A stretch of 64,000 bases of DNA, taken from the NCBI GenBank assembly GCA_973895155.1, contig OZ316896.1, positions 4,469,925 to 4,533,924 on the forward strand, written 5' to 3'. This DNA is from Marsupella aquatica (Eukaryota; Plantae; Marchantiophyta). Below, piece by piece: positions 9,132-38,434 of this stretch (position 1 is its first letter; each line of letters starts with the position of its first letter). The translations under genes were made by a program, and so were the position numbers. The notes beneath the pieces were generated by a model. It worked only from the letters and a program-made list of their open reading frames with translations. It made no database searches and was not told the origin of the DNA.

Positions 9132-10968
9132 GGTGACCAATTCTTCCACTCCCGAGCAGAATTCTCAGAGAGCAGCCTCCTTGCTCTTCAAAACGAATCA
9201 GCAAATTTCACCACTGAATCCTCGACCCAAATTCCCTACGAGAACAAGCAATTCAGAAATCTTGAAACCCAAGAATCAATCAGACACGACCACCCAGAAA
9301 TCGCATGGGAAATCTTCGCCGAAGCGAGCGTACCCACAAAACTTGATTACTGGACGAGCACCAAAACATGTGCATCTGCTTCGAGCAGTGCCAGCTCAAT
9401 GATGGATAGGTGGCTGTCAATCCGTCTTTGCTGGTGTCCCCGGCAAAACAAGGAAGCAATCGAGGCCCTACCCATTGCTACGGAGGACTGTGGATGAGAT
9501 CATTATGTGGAAGGAGCAGACGACTAAGCGAAAGGGGTCAGGGTTGTAGTTAAGGAGATGTTTTATTCTTATTTTTTAAATGGAGTTTGTGAAACCCCAT
9601 AGAAAGGGAAGAGTTGGCCACAATAGTTGAACCCAAGACCTATCAGTCTCTACTCAAGTCAACTATCACAAATACTCAAGTCAACTATCACAAAGTCATG
9701 CCTCTGTGGGCTAGGAGATGTTTCTTAATTTGATGGACCCTAACTTAGTAGGTAAGATGGACCCTAACTTAGTAGGTTACACACATAAAAGTTATAACAT
9801 TACCAAATTCATAGTCCCTAACTATTTGCCATAAAGATTGGTCATACGTCCTCCTATATGCCTTGACCATAAGTCATTGTAGAGGCTAGTGACCTAATCT
9901 ACAAACCCTCTGAAAATAGCTATGGCCATTGCTTATGGCCAAAGTCATCATTCACACTTTGAAGCTTTAGACTCCCTAATCTACTTGTCCCAATAAACTT
10001 GTGAGAAGGTTATAAGCCTATTCCATCAACCCTTAGTTGAGGGCACTGAAATTAGACCGGAAGGCTCTAATGCCCCGATAAGAAGCTTGAACTAAGGTTT
10101 CCCTGAAATAAGAAACTACCTAGGTCTTGGCGTGCCCAAGATTCTCGGAGATTAAAGGGTTAACATATCTGAGGACTGATGGAACTGACACTACTCTATA
10201 AGCTTGAATATCTGAGCTAGCCAGGGTCTAAGGTAACAATAAGTCAACCTCCCGTCTGTAAGTCGGCAGGGAGATCCACTAGTGAGCACATGCATGCTAT
10301 TAATAGTCAATTAGGAATCCATCAGTGCTTAGCAATCCATTGGTGATCAATGATAGCAATCTGGCCCTGGGAATGGATACAACTGGAAGTGTAATCGAAA
10401 ATTGACAATTGAGCATCTTATTTTGTGTGCTTTACCTTCTGTTGTTACAAGGACTTAAAGTAGAGGCTTCCTCTACCGAATTACTTCCTTCTAGTTGCAA
10501 TCAAGATGGCTGCAGAGCACACTTTGACTCCTTCAATTTACACTCCTTTATTCCACATTCATCAATCAAGTTACAATGGGTGCACTTGAGTAGGACACTT
10601 GTGTGATTCTGATCGCTGGTCCTTACGGTGGGCTGCTACCTCTCTACCACCAAGTTCAGAACTTCTCAAGTCTCTCTTGTAACAGTAAACAATTGAAAAG
10701 CCCTTGCTTAGAACCAGCCAAGGGGCAAAGCTTCCTTACTTCCCTACAAAATTGCTACACGTACAACCTATCCAACTCATTCCAAACAATTCAACTAGTC
10801 TCCCTCTAAGACTAGTCATCAACAAACATGCAATCATCAATGAGTCCCTAATGAGCCTCATGACACCCCTTAAGTACTCTTCGAATAGGAATATTGTTGC
10901 CTGACATGTGTTGCCAAGGCAACCTCATCCAACCAGCAACTGAAGCCTCAATGTTGACTAGGACCAAG

Positions 10969-11003
10969 AACACAGTGATGGACCAAACGAGAAGTATGAC
11001 CAC
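10969..11003 (+). repeat. Left terminal inverted repeat
   Basis: 35 bp, 3 mismatches to the right TIR. Confidence 0.92.
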
Positions 11004-11532
11004 CAAACGAGAAGTGTGTTTTCGATTTCGCAAAAAACGGCGATCACTAAAATTAAGATCAAAAACACTATTTTGAGGATGAATCCAAAATCGCATCCAA
11101 CATTGGATTTCAAATCGAGATACTGTCGACACAAAAACAAAGAATTGTCACAATCCAGAATTCCGATACACTTCATCTAAAAAAAGTGCAAATTCCAAAA
11201 CCTAGAAAAACAATGCTTTTCATGTGATCCTTCTAAACGCTAAATCTGAGCGTCAAACAAAACGAGTAAAACACAAGATTTCATTTTCGCCATCAAAATG
11301 GCAAACTGAAAATGGGATACGGCGTATCCCATTTCGGATTCAACCGTTGAACGTGGACGAAAACCGCACCAAATCATTCTCTTGACGCTTCCATTTAACC
11401 TCGGTTTAAAAATATTTGAATTTTTAACTGCGGTAAAACCAAAAACTGTGAAAACTGACCGCGGACTACAGTCGACCCACACAGTTAGTTAAGTTAACCA
11501 GACGACATGTCCAGAAAAATTCTAGCCCATAA

Positions 11533-11876
11533 TGTTGAGCATAGACGACATTCGTAACGGCAAGCCCATGAACCATCCAACGCACAATAGTCGACACAGA
11601 GAGATACGTGGTTCACCTCCACATGAGGCTACGTCCACGGGAACACACAAGAGCTTTACTGCACTCTAGGCCGACCGGCCATACCAAGCATCCACAGCAC
11701 AAGCTCTCCCTATCTCTCAACTAGCTCCGTAACAATGAGCCTAAGTTCCACCAGGGTCTGGCATTAGCCCTGGCTATATACACAACAGCACTACCGCTAA
11801 CATTAGCTAAGTCCTAACCCAAGTTAGACTAACTGTGGTTAGCTCATGAGTCACAAGACTAGAGCAATATCTAACA
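11533..11876. mobile_element. Solo LTR (copia-type), 344 bp, nested in the TIR element
   Basis: TGTT...AACA termini, 5-bp TSD CATAA on both sides, and the gatacgtggttcacc...ctacgtccacgg motif typical of copia LTRs. Confidence 0.85.
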
Positions 11877-12437
11877 CATAACGCATGATGAATACGAGAT
11901 GGGATCCAAGTATCCACTATCATATTCAACCTCAATGTTTTCCACCTGCAACTTTGCATGAGGAGATCTTTCGACATGAATACCAACTGAGATCCATGGA
12001 TCCCATTTTTTTTGCAAATCCAAAAACTCATCGGGAAAACAGGAGGATGAATACCAGATGGGATCCATGAATCCCATCTAGTATTCAACCTCTACATTTT
12101 GAAGTTTTTGCATCGCATACCTTGATATTCCAGTTTGAAGACCAACTGGGATCCACGGCGACTTCCTCAAAAATCTACAATTTAAATTTCAGCATTCTTT
12201 GAAAAGACAGACTCTCACATGAAAAAACCCTCGTACGGACCAATCAGGGAATGCCATGTGTCCAATGCCCCCGAAAACTATAAAAGGAAGAGCTCGCATC
12301 TATTTTTCATCTTCATTTCTCGCGATTACTTTGAGGTTCATTCAGTATTGAGTAGTTGTTTTCATAGAATACTGTAATCTGAATTTTCTCTGTTGGATAG
12401 GAATATGTACTCCTATACAACCCTTGTTGGATTCTCT

Positions 12438-13890
12438 ATGGCGTCTTCAAGTGATGAGTCAATTTATAGTTCAGATGCATCTTCGCCAGATGTTGTTCAA
12501 AAATTTATTCCATCTCTTTTGATGAATGAATTACCAGCCTCGCAGAGAGTAGTGTCAGAGATTTCATTTTCCTCAGAATCTGAGAAATCAGAGTCTAATT
12601 CAGAGTCTTGTAGGAGTGTTGTGGGTGCTCCGATTTCATACTATGTCTCTCCAAGTAAACCTCTTAAACGACGTCTACTTGTAAAGAAGCCTAATGTAGT
12701 TCCTACGACAGAGACACCTGGTTCACCGTGAACCAGACATATCTTCAAAGATGAAGGCCCCGGTTTTTAATGCCAAGAACAATGTTACCATGTAGGCCCG
12801 CCCGAAGATCTCCGTTGGCTTTTCCAATGTCTCATTCTCCGAGAGTGAAGATAGTTGTGTCCAGTGTTCAATCACAGTTTGAGCGAATGAGGAGTCCAAA
12901 TGTGCCAGAATTGCAGGGAGGGGCAGCCTCGGAGCCAAATTTGGTGGGTCGAATACCAAGTGGGATCCGTGGATCCCACTTGGTATTCCCTACTCAAATG
13001 TTGAGAAACGGTGAACGCGAATTGCCTATTTTGTCTCCTTCAGTACCAAATTCCTTGGGTCAAATACGAAGTGGGATCCATGGATCCCACTTAGTATTCC
13101 CTCGTGATATTTTGCAGAATCCTGTGCCCGAGTCACCGGTCTTGCGGACTTCCAACCCGAGTTCCGATGGTGGAATGCGAAATGGGATACGCGGATCCCA
13201 GTTCGTATTGCGCAACGGAAAATTACCAAGTCATGACGCAGAACAGCAAGTGGGAAAGTTTTCACTTCAAAGTCCCGAAGGACGAATACGAGTTGGGATC
13301 CATGGATCCCAATCGGTATTCCCATCAGTTATTTCACCGAGTGGTAAAACTAACAACATGGGGCTTCGAAGCCCTTTGGCGAGGATGCAGTGTGAGGTTT
13401 TTGGATCTTCCATTGGACGGCAAGTGCAGAACGAAAGAGGGAAGAGATCTAGTGTCCAGAAAATTCCTCGAAGATTATTGCGAAGTGAGCTGTCGGAGAG
13501 AGGGCCCAAAAATTCAAGGGTACATGCTAAATTGAAACTTGTCCAAAGATTATTCAATGGTCAAGATGAGCCCTCAAGTTGAGAAGAATCACCTAGGCTG
13601 GGATTACAATCTCAGAGACAAGTGGGCGGTACTCCGACTGAAGATGTGAATATCATTAGAAGATTTCAAACTAGAAATCTCCGAACACCTATTACATTTT
13701 CAGAAGACTCTGAAGAAAGATCAGAGGAGGCTGCAAATGATAGAGAGACTGCTGTAATCTCAAATATTGTTGAAGAGATCCTGGGATGTGAGATTGTTCA
13801 TGAAACAGTTACAGAAAATGTGGAGAGTGGAAACAACTCTACAGAAGATCTTTTTGTTTTGAATTCTAATTCACTAGAAAATAGTGGGGG
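12438..13890 (+). pseudogene. Ser/Pro-rich ORF of the TIR element, possibly the 5' exon of the transposase gene, disrupted by a frameshift and a stop
   Basis: ORF pieces 12393-12731, 12770-13582, 13622-13894; GTAAGT donor at 13891; homologous peptide conserved in the relative at 33762-33974. Confidence 0.5.
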
Positions 13891-13959
13891 GTAAGTTCTC
13901 CCGACACTATTCAGGGTAGAGTAGAGGTGACATGACCCAGCAAGAAAATCAGAGATCAG

Positions 13960-16326
13960 ATGATTAGAAAAGATAGACTTACCATTGCAAATCTAAAAAA
14001 ACGCAAAATTAAAGATATTTTTAAGTATCCCTGTTGTGACAAGTTTTGCTTGAGGTCTCTGGGTCTAGAGGAATGCTCAAAACAACGCAAGTATTATTTT
14101 GGTCTTAAACACTTGCAAAAAATATTTTGCTACGAGGTTGTATCATGAACAACTGTAGTACTTCTCGTGGATATAGTGTAAATGGACAACCTATATGTAG
14201 AGGAGGATTCAAGAAACTATATTCTTTAGGTAATAATAGATTGGCAACAATCCATGCAAACATGTTTACAAGGATTGAACGAGATACCTTTTGTAAGGAA
14301 GACTCACCTTCATTTCTAAACTTGGTGGAATGGTTGAAAGATTTTTTCCAAAAAAATATGGATAGTCTTCCCCATAAAGAGATTCATCACTTGCCAGACA
14401 ATTGGACAAAGCAAGAGATACATGGAATTTTTGAAGCTGAAACAATGTTGCGAGAAGAACAACAAGTTACATATTCTTATTTTTTGCGTGTTTGGAAAAA
14501 AAACTTTCCAAATGTACGAATTCCTAAAAGGAGTCGATTTTCTACTTGTGGTCCTTGTACTGAATTCAAGGCTCTTCGGGACAAAGCAACAACTGAAGAG
14601 GATAAAAGTAAGTTCCACTAACTATAACCTTCAACGTTAATTTGATGACATGTAATTCAATATTTGTCAAAGTTTATCCTTAAGTAGTTATTGATTTTTA
14701 ATTCATTGCTATTGTATCATTTCAGGAAAGTACATCAATGCCCTTATGGAGCATCGAAAAGTACAATCATTGGAAAGGATGAAGTTAGCCAAGCATCGTA
14801 AAAAATGCTATGATGAGCCCAACAAGTATTTGGTTATTTGTATAAATGGTATGGATCAAAAGAAAACAGAGCTACCACATTTTCTTCGTTGTCCAAAGAA
14901 CATGGATGAAAAATATTTCATTCCAATACATGTTGTAGGTTGTCTCATCTTCAACAGGAACCTTGCAGCAAAAGTATTTTTGACATATCCCAATATCCAT
15001 AATGATGCAAACTTGACCATACATGTTATTCAAAATGTATTGAATACATGGGATGGGACATTACCAAGAGTGTTATATCTTCAATTAGATAATACCACTA
15101 GGGAAAACAAGAATAAATTCTTGATGACTTATCTTTACATGTTAGTAGATTTGAAGATTTTTGACAAGATTAAAGTGGGTTTCTTGTTGGTCGGTCATAC
15201 ACATGACCAGATAGATCAGATGTTTAGTAAATTTTTGTCTAGGTTAAACAAGCACAAAGCATTTCGCTTGGAGACTCTTGAGGATATTCTTTGACGAGTA
15301 TATTCAACTGAAGCTTTGATCATATTTGTGGATGAAGTAGCCGATTTTCAAAAATTTGTTAATGAAAATGACCAGCCAAATGAGAAGGGAGTCTCAGGTA
15401 GAGTCTTGAGAGATCTCAATCTCATAACTTTTCAAAGGCAATTCAGATTCAAACGAGTCATGGAGGATGGAAACGAAGAGACAACATTTCACGGGAAACA
15501 TCTTTCCACGACCCAGGATTGGGGAGATGCATTGACGTTCGTCAATTACATTCCAACTTCAAGAATGTGGGTTGCTGCACAAATGTCACTGAAGTCAGCA
15601 AAAGGTGTTGAGAGGGATGATGTCCATGATTCTTCCAATACAGATGGTGCATTAACTACTCTGGTGAAATATGAAAAATCTATCCAGGAAGGTTTCAATT
15701 ACTTTGACAATGAAGATAAACTTTGGTGGATGAGTTTTTTTGAGAAACAAAAAGATATTATCAAAAACCACCTAGATGAAGGTGAGTGGTTATTTGAGTG
15801 GGTTTGGCCGCAACAAAATCAAGGTGCACAACTACTTCAAAGGGTGAGAAATGAACTTGTTGAAGAAGGTGTTGATCCAACTTTGGTTGACAAAGTTGAT
15901 GGACCACAGAGAATTATGTACTCCGGACCTCGACAAAAGCAAGTTGAATTTGGAGATTTCAGAGATATGGAAGTTAACAATAAGTGATCCATGATATGTG
16001 TAGCGGCACACAAGAATCCAGAAGGCAAGTTGTTTTGGATGGCAAAGGTGTAAAAGATTTTGACAAGAACTGCAAACATTCCTGAGAGAATCAAAATCAC
16101 ATGGTACACAACTGAGGCAAGTGCTGAGTCTGCTATTGATGGGAAATATTTTCCAGAGAAAGATAATATATCTAATCGACTTCTCCAAGATGAACGAGTT
16201 CTATCATCAACAGCGGTGTATGCATACAACTTTGCGCTTTTAAGTACTAATCAAATAGCAGCAAAAACTAAAAAAATTATAGAGTCTGCTATATTAGAGC
16301 GAGGTTCTGCACACTCAGAGGATTGA
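13960..16326 (+). pseudogene. DDE-type transposase, DUF7869/Sola-like, with intron ~14608-14725 and several stops and frameshifts
   Basis: Cys-rich N-terminus (CCDKFC, CRGGF, FSTCGPC), INGMDQKKTELPHF, LYLQLDNTTRENKN, GFLLVGHTHDQIDQMFSK; TGA at 15292-15294; C-terminal FWMAKV...IKITWY beta-barrel-like segment. Confidence 0.8.
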
Positions 16327-16337
16327 GATTGATGTCT

Positions 16338-17230
16338 TTAAACAGGTACATGCATCAATTTTAGAATTTGATCTCGAATGAATTTTCTAAGGTTACATGC
16401 TCTTTTACAATTATACCATTTTTGGGTAAATAAAGACTGTGCATCAAGGCATTGTGTAATATGCCATTGAATTCTGATTTTGTCCATATTTTGAAGAACA
16501 AATAGACCACAATCCGAATTGTTTGGTTGTTCAAGTACTTGAGAAAGAATCTTAAAGTTAGTCCAAAGTGTTTAATAATTGAACTAAATAAAAGTTGAAA
16601 TAGCTTTTCAAATCCTTACCATTGGATTGTAAATCTCCACAACTCCCATTGGAACTTTTCCAAAAAATAATTCCCATTCCATTGTAAAATATCTGCAAAT
16701 TATCATTCAAAGTTCTTAGTCCAAAGTGTTTATATTTATGTACCACATAAATATATTCAAATTGAAAAAATGTAATAGAATAGATAGATACCTGCTCAGT
16801 ATTGATCCAATTACATGGGTTGAGTGTAGACCGGCGAGAGAGTCTAGAGATGATACATTTTGATCGAAGATTCAATCCAATCCAAACATATTACAACCAG
16901 ACTCCAGTGCATGCTCATGTGAATTGGCATGAGAATGACCTCAATTTGGGAAAATGGTGGCTTGTAATAATTCCGCATCTTTTGAATTGATTCCAACAAG
17001 GTCTCAGCTGGTTCTGTTTCAATCCTTGAAACAAGCCAAGGGTAAAAAAAAGAGGATAATATGTTTACTGAGGGAGCCAGATCTCCATGTTCCTCGGTTA
17101 TTAATTGTGGGTAAAATTCCATTATTTCATCACCCAAATATTGACCGGGTTCAAGTTGGCTCAATGTTTTATTGTCCAAAAGAAATCCACTAGAAGGATT
17201 GTGTGAGAATCTATGCAGAACATGTTTCAA
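16338..17230 (-). pseudogene. Ulp1/C48 (SUMO-type) cysteine protease, disrupted
   Basis: LEPGQYLGDEIMEFY, ILSSFFY, MPIHMSMHWSLVVI (catalytic His), DSL after a frameshift, and QPNNSDCGLFVL (catalytic Cys) at ~16495-16530; stop at 16338-16340. Confidence 0.8.
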
Positions 17231-17363
17231 TACAAAATCCTCCTTTGGTTCCTACAAAGACATTACTTTGTGAAATAAGAACATAGTCCAATCATAATCT
17301 TCCTCAATATTTCACAAGTTTGGATTAATAGATACAACATGACAGAACTAATCAAACTTAAGT

Positions 17364-18473
17364 CTACACCTCAAGGAATGAGCCAAGATCAAGTGTCGAA
17401 GCTTCATGTTCCACTTCATCCTCTTCATCCTCATCATTGTTGTTCTCCTCCGCGGTTGTAATGATGCAAGTTCCAGTGGTGAGGGTGCTCGTAGTACCAC
17501 CAATAGGTGGTTGAACCTCAAAGCTCATGGGTCCTGTACCCTCCTCGGTTGCTTCATCATTCAAGTCCCACGATTCATCAAGCATGACAAGTCGGGTCCG
17601 GATACAATCCACCTGGCTTGCACTGAGCTCCACGGCTGTCACCGGACGTTTCCCTAACAAGGCAGCGCATGAGGTCAAACCACTCCCCGCACATAAATCA
17701 GCAACCCAATCCCCTGCTTCACTAAAATGTTGAATGAACCAATCTGCTAGAGCTATCGGCTTCTGGTAAGGGTTCACTATTTCCCCCAATGGTGTTACAC
17801 ATTTCTTTGTAATACAAGGGACTTTTATGATGTTTACCTTTTTCTCATCATGTTCAAAATTGTACATGTCTCTGGTCCTAATACCACTCTCGTGATAATA
17901 TCCGATTGACCAGTTTTCAAAAGCCCAAGCCAATCGATTCCCGGAAGGATGAGCATGTACATTTGGCTTCTCCCAAATTCCAGCCTCTACACCTACGTTA
18001 CAAGTTTTTCCAAGAGCATTCATCACAGACCAACTTTGCTGCAAAGAGTGAATCACAACAAACCTCCACATCTTTGAACTTGTCACCTTGGCAAAACACT
18101 TCACCATATCCACAATATCACTCTCTGAAAATGGGACCTCATCATTTTCAGAGCCAGGCGCATTGAATCCATAAGGAATGTCTGCAATTGCAAGTGTGTA
18201 ATTCCTTTTCTCTACAAACTTATCCAGCGCCCTGACATCTCCACAATGCAATGTATATCTGATGAAATTTCTGTCAGCATTTTTCCATCGATGGTCACTC
18301 GACTTTGCTTCAACCGTTTCAATCCCACAACGATGGTTGTAGTTCTCAATCGCTTCTTGAACATAATTCTTAAACCTTGGGGGAATAACACTCGAAGTCA
18401 GCTCCTCCGTAGGTTTCTCAACCGCATCGGCACCAATTGCATCCTTGTTCTTCTTCTTCGAAAAAGCTTTCAA
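17364..18473 (-). CDS. Beta-class (circularly permuted) N6-adenine/N4-cytosine DNA methyltransferase catalytic exon, open reading frame
   Basis: Motif IV LAIADIPYG precedes NPYQKPIAL...GDWVADLCAGSGLTSCAA...VTAVELS (motifs X, I, II); TTGCAG acceptor at 18474. Confidence 0.88.
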   Translation of the reverse strand: MKAFSKKKNKDAIGADAVEKPTEELTSSVIPPRFKNYVQEAIENYNHRCGIETVEAKSSDHRWKNADRNFIRYTLHCGDVRALDKFVEKRNYTLAIADIPYGFNAPGSENDEVPFSESDIVDMVKCFAKVTSSKMWRFVVIHSLQQSWSVMNALGKTCNVGVEAGIWEKPNVHAHPSGNRLAWAFENWSIGYYHESGIRTRDMYNFEHDEKKVNIIKVPCITKKCVTPLGEIVNPYQKPIALADWFIQHFSEAGDWVADLCAGSGLTSCAALLGKRPVTAVELSASQVDCIRTRLVMLDESWDLNDEATEEGTGPMSFEVQPPIGGTTSTLTTGTCIITTAEENNNDEDEEDEVEHEASTLDLGSFLEV

Positions 18474-18949
18474 CTGCAAACATAAACTTGTTAAAAGAAT
18501 CCGGAGAAAAGACAATGGGGAGATAACCATTTAGGAATTCAAACAATCAAATCTGGATGATAAATGCGACATGGAATACCCCGTATCCCAGTTCGCATTC
18601 AACCAAGCACAAACCACATTGAAACATCACCAACGTCAAATAACCACAAGTGAATCCGAGATGGGATACCCCGTATCCCACTTCGCGTTCAACCAAGCAA
18701 AAACGACATGAAACATCACAAACGTCAAATAACCACAAGTGAATACGAGATGGGATACCGCGTATCCCACTTCGCATTCAACCAAGCAAAAACCACATTG
18801 AAACATCACCAACATCAAATAAGCACAAGTGAATCCGAGATGGGATACCCCGTATCCCACTTCGCATTCCAACAAGAAATCCACGAAGAAAACCTCCGAA
18901 CATGGCAAAACAAATAGAAAAGTCCAATCAATGGAAGGGGAGAACATAC

Positions 18950-20779
18950 CACATCGGACAATTTCTCACTCCATCTTTCGAGCTCGGCAGATTCTGTTTC
19001 TTTCGGAAACATTTGTTTGCAAGTCGCCCAGTCTGGCTGCCCTGACAACTGAACAAAAAGCTTGTTGATTTTCACAAGTTTCTTGTAACTCTCGGCTTCT
19101 TTTGCCATCTGCTCCAAAGAGATCATCCGGTCTTTCACTCGGAGAAGAAGGGACTCCAAAAATTGGTCGTGTTCAATTCCCTGGATTGCTCTCCAAGGTG
19201 TCAGGGTAAGGCCCCCTGCAAGCTTATTCAAAGCTTTTGGAATCGACTGCGCTTTTCCCTTTCCTTTCTTGAGTTTCTTGATCGATGACTTCTGCTTATT
19301 CTACCCATTGATCTCCAACTTGTTCCACATCTCAAAGATCTGGTCTTGGAGTTCCCAGACCTTACCCGACCTAAACGCAATTTGGAAGAGAGGCTCATGC
19401 TTCTTCAGGCTTGTGGCGTCCCCCGAAAAAAACCCGTCGAGGCAAACCTCCATCGCACACGCTTCTCTAGTCTCCTTGGTTTTTGCCATTCCTCTGGCAA
19501 GGAAAATCTTATGCATTGTTCGGATTTGATCAATGTTGTTCATTTTTTTCCTGTACTCCTAATCAATATTATGTTGGATGCTAAGTTTCTGAATGTTCTC
19601 CCTTGTGAGACCAGCATACACCCAAGCTTGGAGTTCATTGAAGATCTCTCTCCCATAAGCCTGATAGTTACAATTCTCTCTTAGCCCGAGCACCGTGATT
19701 ACCTCCAATCACTCGATATCTCTAGCTCGTTGCTATCGTTGAGTTCTCGTCGTCAATATCGTCAACAAGAAGCAGGTTAGTTGATTTCAGAATAACTATT
19801 ATCTTCTGAACTCGCTTGGTCTCCATCAATCAAGACACTTCTTCACAAACCATAAGTGTCTCTTCCCGCTGCAAAGCTGTGGTGATATCTGTTGAATCGT
19901 TTTTCTTTTCTTTAACAGCTCCCCTAGATGATAAAGAAGGCCCACCTGACAAAGTTGAAGGAATCTGAGACGGTGTCTGTGAAATTGGTGGGACCAAAGA
20001 TGAGACAACACTTCCGGGTGCAGAAGGCGCGCGCTTTTGGATGTCACGTCGATCCAATTTCTTCTTGCCAATAGCTTCTCCTGACACCGCTACTTTAGAA
20101 CCTTCCCCGGAGAGTTGATCTGCAAGCTTCCTCTTTGTCGGGTTCCTTAAAAGAAACTATGGCAGATTTCTCCTTTGTCGAGGGTGTTCTAGACATTTCC
20201 CCTGACTTCGAAGCCGGATCGGTAGGCTTCGCCACTTTCAACTTCAAAGGCCGCTCTTTGACGCCAAAGTCGGCTCCAATGATGGACCTATATGCTACCT
20301 TGGTAAAATCCTCAACAACCGACCAAGACTTCAAGACAAATTTCAAACACCAATAAGAAAAGTCCTCAATCTCTGGCACTTCCGAAATTAGCTTGTAGAT
20401 CGGGTCATTAGGAAATGTGTTCATCGAGACCCGATCAAGTTTCTCGTAGTTGAGGACAACTACAGTGAAGGCATTGTTCGGAAGAATGCAAAGGTACATT
20501 GGAATCTTCTTCAGCTATTTTGTTTTTGAGTTAGTGATATCCGCCTCCCCAGTGTCCACGACTAATCCATAATGGCAATGGTCTTTACCCTTAACTATAA
20601 CCAACCACACCGCTGGACCTTCATAGGCTCTGTGAATATCCATCGCCCGAGCATCCCTGAAGTACCACCTATTCCTCATGAGTTTCTCCTCCGTGTAAAG
20701 GTCCTTCTTCCAAATCTCATCGACGATGGATGTCCATGAAGACTGGGTCGAACCAGACGACTTGGATTTGCTCGACATG
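18950..20779 (-). pseudogene. N-terminal part of the methyltransferase gene, including a ParB/Srx-like domain; has stops and frameshifts
   Basis: Starts MSSKSKSSG; manual translation ~19735-19545 gives YRVIGGNHGARAK...AWVYAGLTRENIQKLSIQHNID; GTATGT donor at 18949 joins in frame to the MTase exon. Confidence 0.6.
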
Positions 20780-21652
20780 ATCCTGAAAAAGATTGACACA
20801 CTTAGAACCAGACCAAATTTTGGGCATAAACATTCAAAAGAAGTAGTTGAATGCAAGATCGGATACGCGGTATCCCACTTCGCATCCAACATCAACAATT
20901 GCCTAGAGTCTGATGCAAAGAACGAAAAAGAGGGAGTTGAATGCAAAATGGGATACGCGGTATCCCACTTCGCATCCAACCTCAACAATTGCCTAGAGTC
21001 TGATGCAAAGCACAAAAAAGAGGGAGTTGAATGCGAAATGGGATACGTAGTATCCCATTTCGTATTCAAAGTCAACAAACAGCGAGGAGGTTCGGATGGA
21101 AGACTAAAAAGAGGGTGTTGGATGCGAGATGGGATACGCGGTATCCCATCTCGTATTCAACATTGAAAAGAATACTCTCTACGTATTCAATAGAGAGTTG
21201 AATACAAAGTGGGATACGGCGTATCCCACTCAGGATTCAACAATGAAGTGCGCCAAGGAGGTGAGAGTTTCTTGAGTTTTTACCTATTATTTGTTTCGAT
21301 TCGAGCAAATACAAAAAGCTATAGAGATGTTGCGGCCCAAGAAAAATGCTGAGGCAAGCGAAGTTGAGAAGAAAAAGAAATGAGCATAAACTTTCTGACC
21401 AGGCGATAAGGTTTCCACAGGCGATAAGGTTTCCACAGGTGTATCCAAAAGCGTAGGGTTGGAGTCCGGAGGTCTATTTATACTTTTTTCTCTTGATAGG
21501 ACTTTGTTTTTGACTAGAGATAAGGCATATCCCCAAGTCCTTGTATTAAACCAAATAGATTTTACGCGTAGCGAATGGGGTTGATGCAAGGGTAATCACA
21601 AAACTTTTTATTCATCCGAAATTGTGCCACAAAATAAACTAAGTTGATATTC

Positions 21653-22270
21653 TTAAAAAGAGTCTTTACAAAGTGCCCATTCAAGATAAGCAGTCCAAAA
21701 CATGAATGGAAAGGCTCTAAACCAGACTAGAAGCGCTTCCCCATACATTTCCAAGAGCCTCGCTTGCTCATCTTTCTCAAGATTGTGCCGGTCTTCTTGA
21801 AATCGATTTAGGTCAGACCTTGAAAATAAACCTAAGAAATCGATTGGAGGAAGATTCAGTGTTTCCATCCTAACAAAAGCTTCAATATGAACATTCTGAA
21901 GGGGTTTTCCATCGGGAATGCTTGTCAGCATTTCATTTACTTCCTCAAACTGGCTTTTTGCTAGTCTAAGAATACCCCATACTCGTGTACGAATTACGAG
22001 CTGGTTCCATTTCTTGGAGGTGCATCCAAGCCACACCATTGTTTTTAATAGCATCAATCTTTCATCAGCTTGGTTCTTGGAGGAATCAAATTTATCCTCT
22101 ATACAACAAACTTTCAAAATGGGCCAAATGAACGTTTCAACAATCTCATCAGGAAGTCCATCCAAAAGCAATCTGGATTCCCTTTGGCCACTTTTTTGTT
22201 GAATTTGTTTCTTCTCTTTGTCAAATGACATCGCTAACCTTGTAAAGACAGGGTTCTCAGTGACGGCCAT
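21653..22270 (-). CDS. F-box-like protein (transposon cargo)
   Basis: LLDGLPDEIVETFIWPIL...LGCTSKKWNQLV matches the F-box pattern (LPDEI...CKxW); 205-aa open ORF. Confidence 0.6.
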   Translation of the reverse strand: MAVTENPVFTRLAMSFDKEKKQIQQKSGQRESRLLLDGLPDEIVETFIWPILKVCCIEDKFDSSKNQADERLMLLKTMVWLGCTSKKWNQLVIRTRVWGILRLAKSQFEEVNEMLTSIPDGKPLQNVHIEAFVRMETLNLPPIDFLGLFSRSDLNRFQEDRHNLEKDEQARLLEMYGEALLVWFRAFPFMFWTAYLEWALCKDSF

Positions 22271-22446
22271 TCCAAAATAAGAGTGGATACCTGGAGTAAT
22301 AAATGAGATGGTGAGCTCTTTCTCAGCAACCTACAAAACAATGATGGAAAAACTGATTTTATTTCTTTGATCAAAAGAAAAATATATTCACTTAATGTTT
22401 GACCCAAGAATGTTCACCTAAACACTTACACACTAATCAAGAAGAT

Positions 22447-22836
22447 TCAAAGCGATAAGTTAACCCAAGGATCTTCGTTCCAAATCCGACAACACAAATA
22501 TGCCAATCGATGATATTTGTTTTGGGCATCACGACAATAATTACAAGAAGAATTAACAGAGTGCAGACAACCACTCAAACATATCCTCGACCGAATCGGA
22601 ACTCCGTCCTCATTTTTTTCACAAAACTCTATTCGGAGTGGATTCAAACTATCATGTGGATCCACGTCTCCCGTCCATAGCGCGCCTAATCCAGGACGAA
22701 GAACTTTGAGTGCAACTAATCGCTTATACAATCGACGAGCACGTTTCTCACGGTTTTGATTCTGGACCGCCATTAGACTCACAAGAGAAAACTTCGTTTT
22801 TCTTGGAAAGCTTAAGCTTGAGTCGGTGTCGGTCAC
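22447..22836 (-). CDS. Small Cys-containing hypothetical protein of the TIR element
   Basis: 129-aa ORF with CxxGC...CxxC; no family recognised. Confidence 0.3.
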   Translation of the reverse strand: MTDTDSSLSFPRKTKFSLVSLMAVQNQNREKRARRLYKRLVALKVLRPGLGALWTGDVDPHDSLNPLRIEFCEKNEDGVPIRSRICLSGCLHSVNSSCNYCRDAQNKYHRLAYLCCRIWNEDPWVNLSL

Positions 22837-24082
22837 TGAAAGGCAGCAAGAGCTTCAGTGCGTGTTTAGGTTAACTTCGCCTACGAAACAATCAGCAATC
22901 CATAAGGTTTTTCCCATCATTCAAAAAAACTCTAGGTAAATACCACATGAGATACCCCGTATCCCACTTCGCATCCAACCTCCATTTTTAGCTAAAGAGA
23001 AATCAAAATTGGACATTTGAAGAGTGAATCTTAAACGGGATACGTCGTATCCCATTTCGCATTCAACGTTGAGGTTTTGACATTTGGAGTCTAAGATGCT
23101 TCATATTCGGAGGTTGGATGCGACATGGGATACCCCGTATCCCACTTCGCATCCAACCTCCGTTTTTAGCTAAAGAGAAATCAAAACTGGACATTTGAAG
23201 AGTGAATCCCAAACGAGATACGTCGTATCCCATTTCGCATTCAACATTGAGGTTTTGACATTTGGAGTCTAAGATGCTTCATATTCGGAGGTTGGATGCG
23301 ACATGGGATACCCCGTATCCCACTTTGTAGGGGTATCCCATGTCGCATCCAACCTCCTTTTTTAGCTAAAGAGAAATCAAAACTGGACATTTGAAGGGTG
23401 AATCCCAAACGGGATACGCCGTATCCCATTTCACATTCAAAGTTGAGGTTTTGACATTTGGAGTCTAAGATACTTCATATTCGGAGGTTGGATGCGATAT
23501 GGGATACCGCATATCCCACTTCGCATCCAACTCCTTTTTTAGCTAAAGTGAAACAAAAACTGGAATTTGAAGGTTGAATCCCAAACGGGATACGCCATAT
23601 CCCATTTGGGATTCGTCCTCACCATTTTCAAGAAGATTCTCACCTGTTAGTCAAAACTGATTTTTGGGGAATACAAGTTTGTATAGACGGTGTGCATTCG
23701 TCTAGAGTAAGAGTAAGAGAGCGAGAAAAAATGAGCGGAAAATTCTCAAGCGGTGATCTCCTATTTATAGTTTTCTCTCTGACCGTGGTTAGTATTTGAC
23801 TGCAGTTGCATCGCAGTCAGTTAAATGTTATCGTTGAGAAGAATCGTTTTGGAATATTCTTGTCGGGTAAACCAATATCGGCACTTTTACTGCGTTTGTT
23901 TTTGTTTTTTTGGAATTCCGTGGTTGGATCCGAAATGGGATACGCCGTATCCCATTTTCGTATTCGTGTCGATTTTTCCCATTTTTTCAATTCAAAAAAC
24001 TAGTTTTTAGGGGGAATACTAATTCCGTATCCAAGACTTTTTTGCCTTAGAAACTTTTTTCGCCGCGGGCAAAACGAGAAGT

Positions 24083-24117
24083 GTGGTCACACTTCTCGTT
24101 TGGTCCGTCACCGTGTT
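24083..24117 (-). repeat. Right terminal inverted repeat
   Basis: gtggtcacacttctcgtttggtccgtcaccgtgtt followed by TSD caag. Confidence 0.92.
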
Positions 24118-24471
24118 CAAGTTATTAGCTGATTGGATCCCCATTCTATCCAACACTGTCCCCTAGCCTATCTAACTTGACATATGTAACTGACTGGCCA
24201 AAATGTTTGACACTACATTCTCCCCCAATAAACCAATAGGACTCATCAGAATTTGCCTAATAAAGTCAGAATCTGACTCACTTCATGCACCTGGACCACT
24301 TTGTCATCATCTATTTCAAACAATTCAAAACCTAAGTCCTCAGAAAATCCATTGCATCCCAAGCCCGATCCCCAGTTGCTTCAACCTCAACAGTGATTGT
24401 ATTAATCAGCACGGGGTCATTCCATCCTGATTTCTCTTGAACATGGTACCCAAATGCTTGTAAGTTACTCT

Positions 24472-30936: not shown

Positions 30937-31368
30937 TCACGCAAACAGCTTTTCCATCGAGTCAAAGAAGCTCCCGTATCCAGCAGTCGCCCTCTTGCAA
31001 TCCTCCTCGCTCAAGTTTCCACCCGTCTGCTTCATCGTCATTTCCGTTCCGCCTTCCACCTCAGCGAGAAGCACTGTGATCGTCTCCCGAGCCGGGATGT
31101 CGGGATTGTCGGTCATGGTTTTCACGAGCTTGGTCGGAGGATTCACCTCCACGTACTCCCCCACCCATGACTTGGAGGAGCCATCAGGAAGTACCATGAC
31201 GGCGCTCCAGCTGCCGCCTTCCCGTGCATCCATCTTGAGGGTGTCAAGCGGCACCGCAATTGCCTCGGTGCCAAACCAGACGGCGAAGCGCTCCGGCTTT
31301 ACCCACGCTTCAAAAACTTTCTCGCGCGGGGCTGCGAATTTGCGCGTGATAGTGATTCCGCCAGACAT
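30937..31368 (-). CDS. SRPBCC/AHSA1-like (CalC/Aha1) ligand-binding protein, intronless, bacterial-type
   Basis: ITITRKFAAPREKVFEAWVKPERFAVWFG...DAREGGSW...GEYVEVNPPTKLV...C-terminal helix GYGSFFDSMEKLF; GC-rich relative to its flanks. Confidence 0.85.
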   Translation of the reverse strand: MSGGITITRKFAAPREKVFEAWVKPERFAVWFGTEAIAVPLDTLKMDAREGGSWSAVMVLPDGSSKSWVGEYVEVNPPTKLVKTMTDNPDIPARETITVLLAEVEGGTEMTMKQTGGNLSEEDCKRATAGYGSFFDSMEKLFA

Positions 31369-33149: not shown

Positions 33150-35150
33150 AAAAGTGCAGCCAGTTATTAGCAGGTGAATAAGTTAGCAGGTAGCCTTGAT
33201 TAGTCTTGAGCAGATGGCAAAAGCGAGAGGCCAAGAGCTACATAAAAACTGGTGAAAATTGGCAAACTGTCTGCACAATTGTCTGGCCAGCTGGATTGGG
33301 CAACCTGTAAACGGATGTTTCCAAAGGAAATTGAATCAGCCGAGTTGGAAGATGGAGTGGGAAATTATTGGATGTGGTAAGTTTGATCTTGTTTTTTTGG
33401 TTTGAATCCAAAATGGGATACAAGGTATCCCAGTTGGGGTTCAACATTGCATTTTGAATGGTTGGAGATTGCTTCTACTTCTTTCTAAAGTTTGAATACT
33501 GAATCGGATACATGGATGTACCCCACCAAATTTGGGTAGGAGAGTGCCCAATTCTGGCACAATTGGGCTTATCATTCGCTTAAATTGTGACTTCACACTA
33601 GACAAAGCTATCTGGACTTCAGGGGACCACGACAGTGCAAAAACCAAAGGAGATCGTCGGGCGGGTCTAATTATATGGTAACATTGTTCTTGGCATTAAG
33701 AACAGCGGCCTATGTTTGGGTGGATCGGTTGGGTTTGCACTGAACCACTAGTCTGATCAAGCTACGGAAATGACATGAGACTTCTTCCCAGGCAACTGTG
33801 CTTAAGAGGTTTACTTGGAGAAACATTATAAGATGATGGAGCTCCAACAACACTCCAACCAGACCCCGAACTCTCCGAATCTGATGACAATAAAATCTCT
33901 AGTATAATTCTTTGCGAGACTGAAAGTTCCTTCATCAAATGAGATGGAATAAGTTTGCGGACAACATCTGGCAAAGCTGCATTGGAACTATAAATTGACT
34001 CCTTACTTGAAGACGCTGTCTAACCGTTAACAAAGTTGTGTAGGAGTTTAGGGTTTAGGCCAATTAAGAAAGTTCAGATCACCAAAATCTAAGAAAAGAA
34101 ATACTCATTAGGCAAGAACCTGAAATGAGTCAACAAAAGTGAAAAAAAATTAGATGCAAGCTTGTTCTTATATAGTTTTGGGGAAGGTGTCCATGACTGT
34201 GGCATTTGCTGATTGGTCCGTACCAATTTCTTACAGGGTTACAATTGGATGCGACTGGGGCTGTGATAAGCAATGACAGATCCAAAGTCATCTCTTTTTT
34301 TGGAGTTGGATCGACAAATGGGATCTGTGTTGGTATTCAAACCTCAAATATTGAGACTCGAGGTGCAGCGAGGGCAAATTTTGGTGGTTGAATACCTGAT
34401 GGGATTCACCCTACATTTTTATTGAGTTGTTTTTGGACTTGGGAAAACCAATGGGATCCCTGTATCCCATTTGGTATTCACACTGGGTTTCTAGTGAGTT
34501 GTTTTACGACTTGCAAAAAAATTTGGGATCCATGGATCTCTATTAATATTCCACCTATAAACCGTGAAATGGAGAGTGGCAAATCTTACTATAAAAGCGC
34601 CAACTGAGGTCTACTTTTAAGAACCTAGGTCTAGAGTGAAGTCTCTAGACCGTAACTCTATGGCCATCATGTGCATGGGAAAAACTGGTGTCATGGCTAT
34701 GATACTATGATGTATGTCAAATGGTGCATGCAAGTTTTTTGTGATAATTTTTAAGTATTTACATTCAAAAAATATGGGCACTTTGGCCCCACCTTAACAT
34801 ATGTGCATAGAAGGTGGATGTGTATACAAAAAGACTGATGTGCTCAAAAAGGAGAATGATATATTATATATGGTTATAAAAATGATGGGTTTTTTATCAT
34901 TTCATTAAGCCTTCAAAGAATATAAATAAAAAACATATTTTGATAATATTTTTATTGTTCTCTGGGTTTGTTCACGTTCAAAGAAGGGGTAGTTGGGGCT
35001 AGTGTGGAATAAAAGAGTTTGAATACGATATCAGATGCAGTATCCCATGTGGTATTCATGTGGCACTCCAGATTGAAATATGTTCAAAGATGTGTTACTT
35101 TGGGTTAACTTAGGTAATTGTGTAGATTGACTGTGGTTGACAATAAATAT
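33150..35150 (-). mobile_element. Inverted, internally deleted and decayed relative of the 10969-24117 element
   Basis: 33205-33380 matches the MTase-gene exon (EQMAK...LSGQLDWATCKRMFPKE, same donor site). 33520-34020 matches 12400-12950. Palindrome copies occur at ~33402, 34305, 34440 and 35018. 35095-35140 matches 11460-11510. Confidence 0.8.
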
Positions 35151-35344
35151 TGTGCGATGGATTATTTTACCCTTGGTAAATATTCAAAGCTAATTTTACA
35201 CCCCGATCTACTCTCATTGGCAGCCTCCAACTCATGATCTCATGTCCATACTCCCCGGTTTGACCTTGCCCGTCAAACTGGGCGTTTGAGAGCGGCAAAT
35301 TGACAACCCGGCACCCGGGTTCGGAAGCAGTCCGGGAAAGGAAA

Positions 35345-35790
35345 CGTCCGGTTCGGGGTTCGGGTTCGGGAGGAGGTTCGGGAGGAGGTTCGGGTGGGGG
35401 TCCGGGTGACTAATCGGGTCCGGGTCCGGGGCGGAGGCGCTCGGTGGGGGCTCGGGGTGGGGTCCGGGTGGGGTTCGGGTCCGCTCGGTGGGGGTTCGGG
35501 GTGGGGTCCGGGTGCGGCTCGGGTCCGGGAGGAGGAGGTGCGGGGGGTTCGGGTGGGGGTCCGGGTGGGGTTCGGGTCCGGGTCCGAGGGGTTCGGGTTC
35601 GGGAGGTACGGGGGGTTCGGGTGGGGTCCGGGCCCGGGGCGGAGGCGCTCGGTGGGGGTTCGGGGTGGGGTCCGGGTGGGGTTCGGGTCCGGGAGGCCGG
35701 GGTGGGTCCGGGTGGGGATCGGGGTTCGGGGTCCGGTTCGGGGTTCGGGGTCCGGTTCGGGGTTTGGAAGTTCGGGGTTCGGGATTGAGG
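35345..35790 (+). repeat. Left subterminal GGGTTCGGG/GGGTCCGGG array
   Basis: Dense short G-rich motif repeats. Confidence 0.9.
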
Positions 35791-36642
35791 CTCGGAGAAT
35801 TAGGGTTTTGCGATTTAGGGTTGGAGGATGGGGCCGGCCGGGAAAGGGTCGGGGGCTCGGGAGAGGATAAAAGGAGGAGATCCCTCCTCTCCCTCCTCAT
35901 TTTCGGTTTTGCAGAAAGGAGGAGAGGAGGAGAGGAGGAAGAGGAGGAGGAGGAGGTAAGTGTTTGGTTTTGGTTTTTATTTTTGATTTTTGGTTTGTTT
36001 TTATTTGTTTGTGTTTTGTTTTGTGATTTTTTAAGTTTTTTTTGTGTTTTAAACCTTAACCTTAGAGCCAAATGGAGGGATATAAAGAAACACTTGTACG
36101 CGCACGCTTTGAGCCTCGGTTCGGTTTGCGATACTCCGTACAAGAATTTCTTAATATCACCTTAACAATTTAGTCTCCTTTGTTCATTAAGTAAAACATT
36201 TGCGGAGATAGAGGAATCCATGTACGCATGCTTAGGGCTCGGTCTGCGATACTTTGCATGGATACCATGATTCGCCGAGAATGTTTTTACTTGAATTACA
36301 AATGAGTGTTAAGTTATAGACACCAAATCACATATGTCGAAGCAGGAATATAACAACTTTGAAAGAAAAGAACACTTTTGTGCGCATGCTTTGAGCGTCC
36401 ACTCGGTCTGCGATATTTCACAAGTGTTGTCTTTCTCTTTTATTGTTGTTATATAGAAAGGTAATTAAAATCATGTGTGCAATAAAAATACATAATGCAT
36501 GGGAGAAATAAACCGGGAAAAGATAATAACAATACGACTTGTAATTTTCAGGTTGGTCGTTGAATCCTTATTGGAAGGACTTTATTTAAATCCCGGTAAG
36601 ATCTTGTTCCTCCCTCACATATTCCTTTTGTGAAGGGAAATC

Positions 36643-38298
36643 ATGGTCATCGAAAATTTTAGTTTAGAGTATAGGCAAGTGTTGGAGATGATCACAAAAC
36701 ATGTGAATGAGGGATATGAGCTGAATCTTGTTGCTCTGGATGCATTGAAGAACGCTCGAAACACTCTCGAACATGCTAGGAATTCTAGCAAAGTGGCCGG
36801 GAAACGAAAACGGAAGGGGGCAAACGAAGAGGCAAAACAGGTTCGACACAATGTGGTAGTGTCGATATGGAAAGAGATACTTTATCGCTACACTCAACCG
36901 AAACAGTATGGGGTGGACGGGTTCGAGAGGGAGTTCACAAGACACGGAGAGAAAGGATACAAGAACTTTCTTGGTGAGATAACCCGTTGTATGCGGGAAA
37001 GTGTACAAAAGGAGGACAATTTCACACGAGAGCAAATGAAGTCATTTGAAGATGAAACTGAGAAACCGGGAGGATTTCTGGAAAATTTGGCACTCAACTT
37101 GGAGAAGCATGTTTGGGATAATTTGGCAGCCAAAGTGGAAGAGGGTGACACTACATTGCTTGGAAACCCCGGGATGTACACACACAAGAGAGAATTGCTA
37201 GTGAAGTGGAGTAAGGAGTTGGCAATGGCAAAATCTGATAGCAATGTCAAATATGCTAACGAGATTGTGCACTTTGGGGATGTCAGCATCAAAAGTGCTC
37301 GAAAAGGAACACGTCCATCGCGTGTAGTTCCAGAGGTTAGGAGTATCCATTTTCTTAAACCTGAGCAGGTGCACAACACACGTCGCATTGGGAAAGGAAT
37401 CCAAGGAGAGGTATACACTTGTCGTATATTACATTGTCCTCTCATTCCCATCAACATGACCTTAGTCGCAAAGCGGTTCAAGGATGGAGACAAGCATAAG
37501 AGACGAACTGACGCATTACAAGAAGTGCGTATGGGAGGACTGAATCATAAGGGAATCGTTGGAGCTCTTGCGTTGACTATTGAGGATCCGCCAAAACTTA
37601 TTTACGATCACTATAATGGAGGTGACTTGGGTAGCTTTATTGATAAGTGCGGCATATCGTCAAAGAGCAAGGGGAAGGCACAGATCACGACGGACCTTGA
37701 TTTCAAGTTTATTTCGGAGAAGAAACTCTTGTTGGAGAACCGGTTGGGAATCGCCTTGGCTTTGCTGGAGACACTGCAATACTTGCATGAGCATGATCGA
37801 TTTCATTGTGATCTTCACTTTGGAAACATCCTTCTTCATTTCGATCACGAGCACGATGTGGCTATTAAGGTGTATGTTGGTTTATGTGATTTTGGCTTGT
37901 CTAAGCATAAATCACAGTGCAAATTACCAGCTAATCGGATGTGGCCCACAGCAACAAAAAAAGCAGCAACATACCAAAAACAATTTCCACAGTTGGCTCC
38001 GGAGCTTGTTCAACCTACCCCTGTCGAGTTTAGTGAAAGTACCGATATATATGCTTTGGGGAATATTTTTGAGACATTGTTGACAGAGAATTGGGATGGA
38101 ATGTCTAAGGGTTCACGGTTTTTGGGGAGGGGTTGGAGTGCACAAGTGCATGGCCCCAAATTGGATATCATAATCCGTGAAATGATGGCCACGGATGCCA
38201 AGAAAAGAATGGATTGTGCTTTTTGGAGTTTGAAGATAGTTCGAACGTTTCCAGATTGCACATTGTATTTGCACAACAGTCCATATCTTAGAGATTAG
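36643..38298 (+). CDS. Protein kinase (hAT cargo), intact
   Basis: IGKGIQGEVY, VAKRF, alphaC Glu (QEV), HCDLHFGNILL, CDFGLS, LAPE, TDIYALG. Confidence 0.9.
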   Translation: MVIENFSLEYRQVLEMITKHVNEGYELNLVALDALKNARNTLEHARNSSKVAGKRKRKGANEEAKQVRHNVVVSIWKEILYRYTQPKQYGVDGFEREFTRHGEKGYKNFLGEITRCMRESVQKEDNFTREQMKSFEDETEKPGGFLENLALNLEKHVWDNLAAKVEEGDTTLLGNPGMYTHKRELLVKWSKELAMAKSDSNVKYANEIVHFGDVSIKSARKGTRPSRVVPEVRSIHFLKPEQVHNTRRIGKGIQGEVYTCRILHCPLIPINMTLVAKRFKDGDKHKRRTDALQEVRMGGLNHKGIVGALALTIEDPPKLIYDHYNGGDLGSFIDKCGISSKSKGKAQITTDLDFKFISEKKLLLENRLGIALALLETLQYLHEHDRFHCDLHFGNILLHFDHEHDVAIKVYVGLCDFGLSKHKSQCKLPANRMWPTATKKAATYQKQFPQLAPELVQPTPVEFSESTDIYALGNIFETLLTENWDGMSKGSRFLGRGWSAQVHGPKLDIIIREMMATDAKKRMDCAFWSLKIVRTFPDCTLYLHNSPYLRD

Positions 38299-38434
38299 AG
38301 ATTAGGGTTTACACAATTTTGTAAAGGTCACCTTAACGATTATATGTTTATTCATTGTATGTCAATTACAATGTTCTGCATTTTGTTGATAATATTCTAT
38401 CAAACTTTGTCGTGAATGCCCAAAATTGTGCTAA

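Follow-up and report, generated by a model that had tools for sequence, protein, structure and literature searches.

A DNA transposon of Marsupella aquatica with a ParB–methyltransferase fusion gene and family-specific palindrome arrays: a candidate self-marking system

The element and its genes

The stretch of DNA analysed here, referred to as the window, comprises 64,000 nucleotides of Marsupella aquatica (Marchantiophyta; NCBI GenBank assembly GCA_973895155.1, contig OZ316896.1, positions 4,469,925 to 4,533,924 of the forward strand). It contains a 13.1-kb DNA transposon (window 10969-24117) with arrays of palindromes and a fusion gene, convergent to the transposase, in which a ParB/Srx-like domain is spliced to a beta-class amino-methyltransferase (MTase). 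The element is bounded by 32-bp terminal inverted repeats (TIRs) with 3 mismatches and by the 4-bp target-site duplication (TSD) CAAG on both sides, the TSD representing a single insertion site only. The left end has been set independently because contigs diverge just before 10969 in four public runs (14, 9, 8 and 5 contigs in runs X2, X1, X4 and X6), which fixes this end and indicates many insertion sites. A 2-bp TSD and CAC..GTG ends were also weighed and were ruled out by TIR/TSD comparison and the contig breaks at 10969. Ends and genes are as follows.

10965..10968, unstranded: left TSD CAAG, adjoining the fixed left end at 10969
10969..11000, plus strand: left TIR, beginning AACAC, then a second copy of the TIR motif AAACGAGAAGT
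12438..16326, plus strand: transposase pseudogene, DUF7869 core by profile match, start codon inferred
16341..17251, minus strand: Ulp1/C48 protease gene (PF02902), His and Cys motifs kept, frameshift near 16846
17364..18473, minus strand: last exon of the fusion gene, an open frame for the beta-class amino-MTase (PF01555) with an acidic tail
18474..18949, minus strand: GT-AG intron, phase 0, with four type A palindromes (defined below)
18950..19880, minus strand: ParB/Srx-like domain (GGNH at 19706-19695) and ParB-type helical/helix-turn-helix (HTH) region, with stops and frameshift
20200..20778, minus strand: conserved N-terminal domain of ~175 aa, family unassigned, first part of the fusion gene, one stop
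21653..22330, minus strand: 225-codon open frame, F-box-like by eye only
24086..24117, minus strand: right TIR, ending GTGTT
24118..24121, unstranded: right TSD CAAG

An earlier note on this DNA described a TIR- and TSD-bounded element holding a transposase, a Ulp1 protease and an F-box-like frame. The boundaries and the first two genes are borne out. The transposase matches PF25273/DUF7869 (E 4e-41) and consists of a low-complexity N-terminus, a C-x2-C motif and a DUF7869 core with three Asp motifs (GMD, QLDN, GHTHDQID), which may resemble Sola motifs. It has an intron at ~14608-14725 and is disrupted by stops at 12729, 13580, 15292, 15985 and 16051 and by frameshifts near 12750, 13885 and 14116; its closest named counterparts are from Adiantum (59% identity), Riccia (58%) and Ceratopteris (53%). 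These counterparts, the spliceosomal introns and the CHG-type decay of the copy agree with a plant host. The protease matches PF02902 (E 6e-10). The F-box assignment fails, with a PF00646 score of 10.5 bits against a cut-off of 20.5 (E 0.62).

The fusion gene runs from 20778 to 17364 on the minus strand. Its first exon, with the N-terminal domain and the ParB-like region, has five stops and two frameshifts, and its ParB core is ~45 codons shorter than in the metagenomic relatives L002 and L005 described below. Removal of the intron (18949-18474) joins the ParB exon in frame to the MTase exon, which matches PF01555 at E 6e-7 (30 bits, cut-off 26.7). MTase motifs are DIPY (18182-18171), QKP (17765-17757) and DLCAGSG (17699-17679), with motif IV preceding motif I in the beta order.

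Conservation of the fusion gene and copy status of the family

A metagenome scan gave 31 loci, including 6 close relatives (L001-L006, 52-59% identical), all from one assembly. The splicing of a GGNH-bearing ParB/Srx-like gene to a beta-class MTase, as the earlier note had proposed, is confirmed by an intron common to all six sequences that comprise the window and L001-L005: it is GT-AG, phase 0 and in the same place in each. A convergent DUF7869 transposase is reached from the MTase in four of the six close loci (L001, L003, L005 and L006, in L005 by 28 residues only), and the contigs of L002 and L004 stop before the transposase position. Between MTase and transposase, no Ulp1 gene occurs in any of these four relatives, and Ulp1 is thus an optional cargo. 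Of 15 MTase pairs, 13 have saturated synonymous sites; dN/dS could be measured in the other two and is 0.06 and 0.07, compared with 0.08 for the single measurable pair of ParB exons and 0.09 for the closest transposase pair. The fusion gene is a regular, selected cargo. Purifying selection, the shared intron and the gene order in relatives refute, for this close clade, the possibility raised earlier that the MTase is a one-off captured fragment, and the expected co-occurrence of MTase and palindromes is seen in all six relatives of that assembly.

The window copy is broken, with both transposase and ParB exon disrupted, and belongs to a family that is multi-copy, with the MTase included in its copies. 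All 30 element bins are covered in runs X1, X2 and X4. In run X1, contig depth is 214-320 inside the element and 16-30 for flank contigs, and depth of the MTase bins (553-554) is comparable to that of transposase bins (480-562); contig depth is not equal to copy number and is taken only as a sign of multiple copies. The indels near 13885, 14116, 16846, 19665 and 20140 are missing from most family contigs, which indicates that the window copy is a decayed member of a family that was more intact.

Palindrome arrays

The arrays, together with a degenerate relative of the element elsewhere in the window, are distributed as follows.

11314..11330, unstranded: one type A palindrome, 5' subterminal
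11901..12075, unstranded: three type B palindromes, upstream of the transposase
12962..13310, unstranded: four type B palindromes at 111 bp spacing, within an open frame
18573-18858, unstranded: four type A palindromes in the ParB/MTase intron
20860..21227, unstranded: five type A palindromes, upstream of the fusion gene
22949..23953, unstranded: nine type A palindromes, 3' subterminal region
33197..35200 (outer limits approximate), minus strand: degenerate relative, 67-75% identical, an internal-deletion derivative

When up to 1 mismatch is allowed, type A (GGGATAC-N3-GTATCCC) occurs 20 times in the window, compared with an expectation of 0 (largest count 0 in 100 shuffles). Nineteen lie in the element and one in its relative, so the confinement of this palindrome to the two, claimed in the earlier note, holds within the window. 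Type B (GGGATCC-N2-GGATCCC), counted with up to 2 mismatches, is present 7 times in the element and twice in the relative. The earlier count of about 25 copies agrees with the total of 26 in the element, but these are two types (19 type A and 7 type B) rather than one palindrome. The relative joins the 5' part of the transposase to the ParB/MTase intron, lacks the MTase exon and retains 1 type A and 2 type B palindromes. As a non-autonomous derivative, its palindromes without an MTase exon are expected under every model and decide nothing.

Sites are mostly non-coding (22 of 26) in the window element, and the open frame with four type B palindromes is probably transposase N-terminal coding sequence. 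None of the 59 sites of L001-L006 lies in exons as drawn, although exons make up 60-80% of the loci; fewer than 0.13 array sites per locus are expected from shuffles of three loci. The arrays of all six relatives occupy places matching those in the window element while their cores differ: L001-L004 and L006 have GCGA(G/T)AC-N2-GT(C/A)TCGC (39 sites) and L005 has CCGAT-N6-ATCGG (20 sites). With the window element, there are three mutually exclusive core sets, and no core was found in the loci of another group. The inner cores span 16-17 bp (16 bp in three of four motif types), a length like that of the 16-bp parS, and whole sites are near-perfect 38-39-bp palindromes. AAT recurs at one offset in all four motif sets (25/40, 15/18, 58/78 and 20/40 half-sites), with GAAT beginning 11 bp before the core. 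This fixed offset makes the site bipartite: the outer (G)AAT arm is invariant, whereas the inner core is specific to each family. The element has no match in Rfam.

Fold, motifs and wider protein family

An AlphaFold model of the homologue P0011 (pLDDT 69) was used for structural comparison. Residues 525-766 match CcrM (Z 23.0, rmsd 2.9, 218 aligned) and M.BceJIV (Z 22.4) best, with N4-cytosine enzymes at Z 19.3 (PvuII) and 19.2 (rotifer N4CMT). Residues 91-440 match PadC (Z 9.1, rmsd 3.0, 99 aligned), Pnob8 ParB (Z 8.8, rmsd 5.1, 211 aligned), KorB (Z 8.3, rmsd 2.6, 94 aligned) and Srx (Z 7.6). The ParB exon of L005 matches Pfam HTH_ParB at E 3e-4 (21.3 bits, just under the cut-off of 22.6) and, weakly, Spo0J 152-191 (E 0.24). 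The modelled structure indicates that the ParB-like domain has a true ParB/Srx fold, which upholds the earlier domain reading, and the P0011 model and the L005 exon together point to a probable ParB-type HTH region. In ParB, the GERRxRA arginine patch is CTP-binding. This position reads GG(N/G/T/C)(H/N)x in 11 of 12 pattern-found homologues and has two arginines in none (register by eye); because the patch is not canonical, parS-like CTP loading is doubtful. No ParA was found among the element ORFs that were profile-scanned.

Motif IV reads D(I/V)PY in all six sequences (window and L001-L005) and is not the (T)SPPY of known 4mC (N4-methylcytosine) enzymes. Motif I reads DLC(A/C)G(S/T)G, and the Asp, Pro, Tyr, QKP and Gly loop are kept in 6/6; the phage MTase in L033 carries DLPY. 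The Asp-type motif favours 6mA (N6-methyladenine) over 4mC as the predicted product. This motif is also the sole ground on which kinship with Marchantia DN4MT1 was set aside.

With the MTase core as query, HMMER found 415 matches at E 0.001 and 82 at 1e-10. Among 30 homologues looked up from 150 matches listed, those with names are from Chara braunii (5), Riccia sorocarpa (2), Adiantum nelumboides (2, plus 1 cluster member) and Ginkgo (1). Long homologues have the ParB-like region and the MTase within one chain; a word-based search for longer fused homologues returned none at E 0.001, but the HMMER search did find them. An MTase tree (51 sequences, 214 columns, FastTree) groups the window sequence with Ginkgo, Adiantum, Riccia and unnamed sequences (support 0.91); its deep nodes are weak, and no donor is claimed. 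Among the best viral matches are phage proteins annotated as ParB, with alignments of ~700 columns. In the phage comparison, the matches listed are below 30% identity. Searches for close viral or prokaryotic relatives yielded 1 weak locus, 11 generic MTase loci and 26 bacterial loci with short generic matches; PADLOC and PHROGs gave generic MTase families only, and no transposase relatives were found among viral contigs. Named MTase and transposase locus tags in Riccia and Adiantum are not adjacent among the matches listed. SET or 2OG domains had no match in the element ORFs or homologues scanned.

The N-terminal domain (L002:643-1209, L005:393-950) is the part that varies most between motif groups, with 39-40% identity between L002 and L005 compared to 67-69% for ParB and MTase. 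Its model is confident (pLDDT 81), beta-rich and PH-like, with a best structural match to M18BP1 SANTA (Z 5.8, rmsd 3.8, 93 aligned) that is below trust level. Foldseek returned no match at E 0.001, profile and Pfam tests were blank, and an ESM assignment to Transposase_28 (0.88) is a lead only. ESM places the ParB exon (L005:2038-2970) with fungal DUF3723 clusters (0.91) and ParB_N (0.90). DUF3723 is a common Starship cargo and may also be a ParB-like protein; a literature search did not find DUF3723 and ParB together in one paper. Weak PHD-like zinc fingers occur in the distant MTase relatives P0136 and P0139 (P0139 PHD E 0.0014), and P0089, P0100, P0141 and P0143 have Cys-rich tails. The PHD-like fingers hint at a wider eukaryotic MTase family coupled to chromatin readers.

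Comparison with known systems

The closest parallel is with Plavaka (EnSpm) elements of the red alga Bostrychia moritziana, in which PAG2 combines PF01555 with SET, PAG3 combines a ParB-like domain with a 2OG oxygenase, and inverted-repeat arrays lie beside PAG3; self-binding and self-modification were proposed there as a hypothesis (bioRxiv 10.1101/2025.02.11.637652). Both systems are giant DNA transposons with a PF01555 methylase, a ParB-like protein and inverted-repeat arrays. They differ in that ParB and MTase form one protein here and lie in two SET- and 2OG-fused genes in Plavaka, and in that the element described here has a DUF7869 transposase, a 4-bp TSD, a host of another lineage, and arrays throughout with family-specific cores. 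The idea of self-marking is, thus, not new, having been proposed earlier for red-algal Plavaka. New in the present element are that the two domains are fused directly, that the transposon is of a different superfamily, that its host is a streptophyte and that the palindrome code is specific to each family.

VANDAL elements of Arabidopsis are MuDR transposons whose VANC protein, with a DUF1985 domain, acts on non-palindromic 8-9-bp motifs and causes 5mC loss (PMC5735166). Family-specific motifs arrayed in non-coding DNA are common to VANDAL and the present elements (22/26 sites in the window, 59/59 in L001-L006), whereas the transposase is DUF7869 with a 4-bp TSD rather than MuDR, and the protein is a prokaryotic-type enzyme; DUF1985 had no match in the element ORFs scanned. 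The order of ParB/Srx followed by beta-class amino-MTase is that of prokaryotic and phage fusions (ParB-terminase loci, PMC4738411; L011 is an example), from which the present gene differs by its extra N-terminal domain, introns and transposon context, the best prokaryotic and viral matches being short generic MTase stretches. Iyer et al. (PMC4738411) traced eukaryotic amino-MTase clades in haptophytes and chlorophytes to phage ParB-terminase loci and stated that there are few in land plants.

Other comparisons are more distant. DAM-LTR and DIRS retrotransposons carry prokaryote-like adenine MTases that were proposed to exploit 6mA, and DAM-LTRs are reported to be absent from Streptophyta (bioRxiv 10.64898/2026.05.21.726589). 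They resemble the present system in having a TE-borne (transposable-element-borne) prokaryote-like amino-MTase and differ in being retrotransposons with an NPP-type pocket and, as described there, no ParB. Marchantia DN4MT1 and rotifer N4CMT are likewise beta-class amino-MTases of bacterial origin and act in the nuclei of eukaryotes; unlike the fusion protein, they are host genes with (T)SPPY that write 4mC and lack ParB. Sola transposons have a three-Asp transposase, a 4-bp TSD and lengths of up to 15 kb, and occur in a moss (PMC10741241). Likeness to Sola is by description only (three Asp motifs, 4-bp TSD, TIRs), and ParB-MTase-type cargo is not mentioned in that description (PMC10741241). 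TET/JBP genes are carried by fungal DNA transposons and SET domains by oomycete ones. A full-text literature search, outside Repbase Reports and most subscription papers, listed no account of a ParB-beta-MTase fusion in a DUF7869/Sola-type plant transposon.

Other features of the window

A later insertion within the element, outside the system, is the following.

11533..11876, unstranded: solo LTR (long terminal repeat; TG..CA, 5-bp TSD CATAA)

Its family has the highest contig depth by far in all four public runs. A hAT transposon at ~35240-46780 has DUF659 and hAT dimerisation domains (minus strand, 45526-42515, one stop), GC-rich subterminal repeats and internal inverted-repeat arrays (40950-42240). 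Its cargo comprises a 554-codon protein kinase frame (36634-38298) and a 669-codon coiled-coil/RING-H2 frame (38435-40444). Two long frames without interruption, for a RadA/Rad51-like ATPase (47962-49056) and an isocitrate/isopropylmalate dehydrogenase (54165-55661), have a higher GC content (0.53-0.54) and are not depleted in CpG; they could be host genes without introns or have come from a foreign source. A short minus-strand frame at 30968-31348, among degenerate repeats, presumably resembles a bacterial SRPBCC/Aha1-like protein by eye. A 778-codon frame at 559-2895 is built on a 66-bp (22-residue) tandem repeat and has no Pfam family above cut-off, and Copia-type pol remnants (Pol_BBD, GAG-pre-integrase) occupy 59000-64000.

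Proposed mechanism and alternatives

The reading that we favour, at a confidence somewhat short of even, is that the window holds a broken copy of a multi-copy family in which the ParB-type domain would bind the family's palindromes and the tethered enzyme would write 6mA on the family's own copies. A dimer of the ParB HTH region would read the 16-17-bp inner core, as ParB reads 16-bp parS, and the enzyme would be active and of adenine type, as suggested by its Asp-type motif and closest structures (CcrM and M.BceJIV). The methylation target would lie in or beside the sites; the best candidates are the (G)AAT/ATT(C) arms, which do not vary between families and are 11 bp away from the core. Bound and marked non-coding DNA would stay accessible, which would favour expression and transposition of the family, and defective copies could be served in trans. 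A wider proposal is that these elements represent a widespread streptophyte lineage with a private code, in which the ParB-type reader of a given family would pick out the core of that family and the fused writer would place 6mA at the adjoining invariant arms. Such a reader-writer would be prokaryotic in origin and could be retargeted; this proposal is possible and on the unlikely side.

Several observations weigh against self-marking by the fusion protein. The GERRxRA arginines of ParB are substituted (GGNHG/S/T; alignment by eye). The window copy has clearly taken 5mC-type damage, which counts against protection from silencing: among 40 listed differences (of 1,174), 20 are C-to-T, and 16 of these 20 are in CG/CHG contexts compared with an expected share of 27% (p 1.4e-6). 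Transposase and cargo divergence follow the same three groups as motif divergence, so co-variation cannot name the palindrome binder, and all six relatives are from one assembly. The TIR motif CCAAACGAGA is similar to the arm found in several of the 3' palindromes, an indication that the transposase is the binder, and transposases can be sequence-specific activators themselves. Streptophytes are described as lacking AMT1 and abundant 6mA, so that no 6mA reader is known there, and retrotransposon DAMs were inactive in E. coli (both bioRxiv 10.64898/2026.05.21.726589).

CpG patterns bear on local protection of the non-coding DNA. The observed/expected CpG ratio of the element is 0.98 in non-coding and 0.59 in coding DNA; values for L001-L006 are 1.02-1.38 and 0.71-0.81, respectively, compared with 0.77 and 0.69 for the neighbouring hAT as control. 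The absence of CpG loss from the non-coding DNA favours local protection. All 10 CG transitions among the 40 listed differences (of 1,174) lie in coding DNA, which is also in favour of it, but 28 of those 40 are coding anyway, and CG inside the motifs supplies part of the CpG excess in L001-L006. Support for an anti-silencing role is mixed.

The ParB part could also bind the arrays while the protein serves mainly as a scaffold or activator, like TnpA or VANC, by which the element is opened, looped or paired, with the MTase idle there or aiding binding or dimerisation. Arrays in introns, gaps and both subterminal regions resemble VANC motifs in non-coding DNA, motif IV reads D(I/V)PY and not DPPY next to a motif I of DLC(A/C)G(S/T)G, and the inactivity of related TE-borne DAMs in E. 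coli points the same way. The MTase is, however, conserved as strongly as the transposase (dN/dS 0.06-0.07 versus 0.09), its Asp, Pro, Tyr, QKP and Gly loop are intact in 6/6, and the phage MTase in L033 carries DLPY; we consider the scaffold unlikely. Much the same holds for palindromes as transposase-binding sites, like CACTA/hAT subterminal repeats, in which case the ParB-MTase would be a cargo of use at other places or independently of sequence. In favour, 10 of the 19 type A palindromes are subterminal, and arms of some palindromes are similar to the TIR motif. Repeat arrays also occur in the neighbouring hAT, whose long ORFs yielded no MTase, and AtMu1 transposase alone activates cognate copies. 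Yet arrays are kept deep inside the element, in the ParB/MTase intron and around the gene, in families with saturated synonymous sites, and a ParB-type gene adjoins inverted-repeat arrays in Plavaka elements too, with a different transposase. This leaves the transposase-site explanation no better placed than the scaffold.

A quite improbable alternative is that the substrate is single-stranded or hairpin nucleic acid (cruciforms, transposition intermediates or RNA) or that the product is 4mC, with a role in copy-number control or self-repression rather than anti-silencing. Near-perfect 38-39-bp palindromes would suit such substrates, the PvuII and N4CMT matches are within ~4 Z of the best adenine enzymes, and many eukaryotic amino-MTases have shifted to RNA (PMC4738411). 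In contrast, (T)SPPY is the motif of the known 4mC enzymes, the short spacers (2-4 bases) and the fixed 11-bp arm-to-core distance suit duplex binding, and an Rfam match to the element is absent. A last alternative, in which the gene is carried as a passenger and repeat expansion produced the palindromes as a by-product, would agree with how common cargo-bearing DNA transposons are in this genome, such as the hAT with kinase and RING genes at ~35.2-46.8 kb, and with the coming and going of Ulp1. This explanation, which we regard as very improbable, is largely refuted by purifying selection, by the conservation of the intron and of gene order, and by a motif geometry that stays fixed even where divergence is saturated.

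Implications

Escape of transposons from plant silencing is understood mechanistically for almost only VANDAL/VANC. The candidate effector described here is an enzyme whose product can be predicted, and several pairs of protein and site occur naturally, so that cognate and non-cognate binding and methylation can be tested directly. The system might also yield a compact sequence-specific DNA-marking tool. If self-marking by the fusion protein is true, locus-specific 6mA would have a defined origin in plants, where this mark is disputed, and the Plavaka proposal would become a strategy that recurs in both red algae and green plants. If the private-code reading is also true, it would represent family-specific self-marking in plants without host 6mA machinery.

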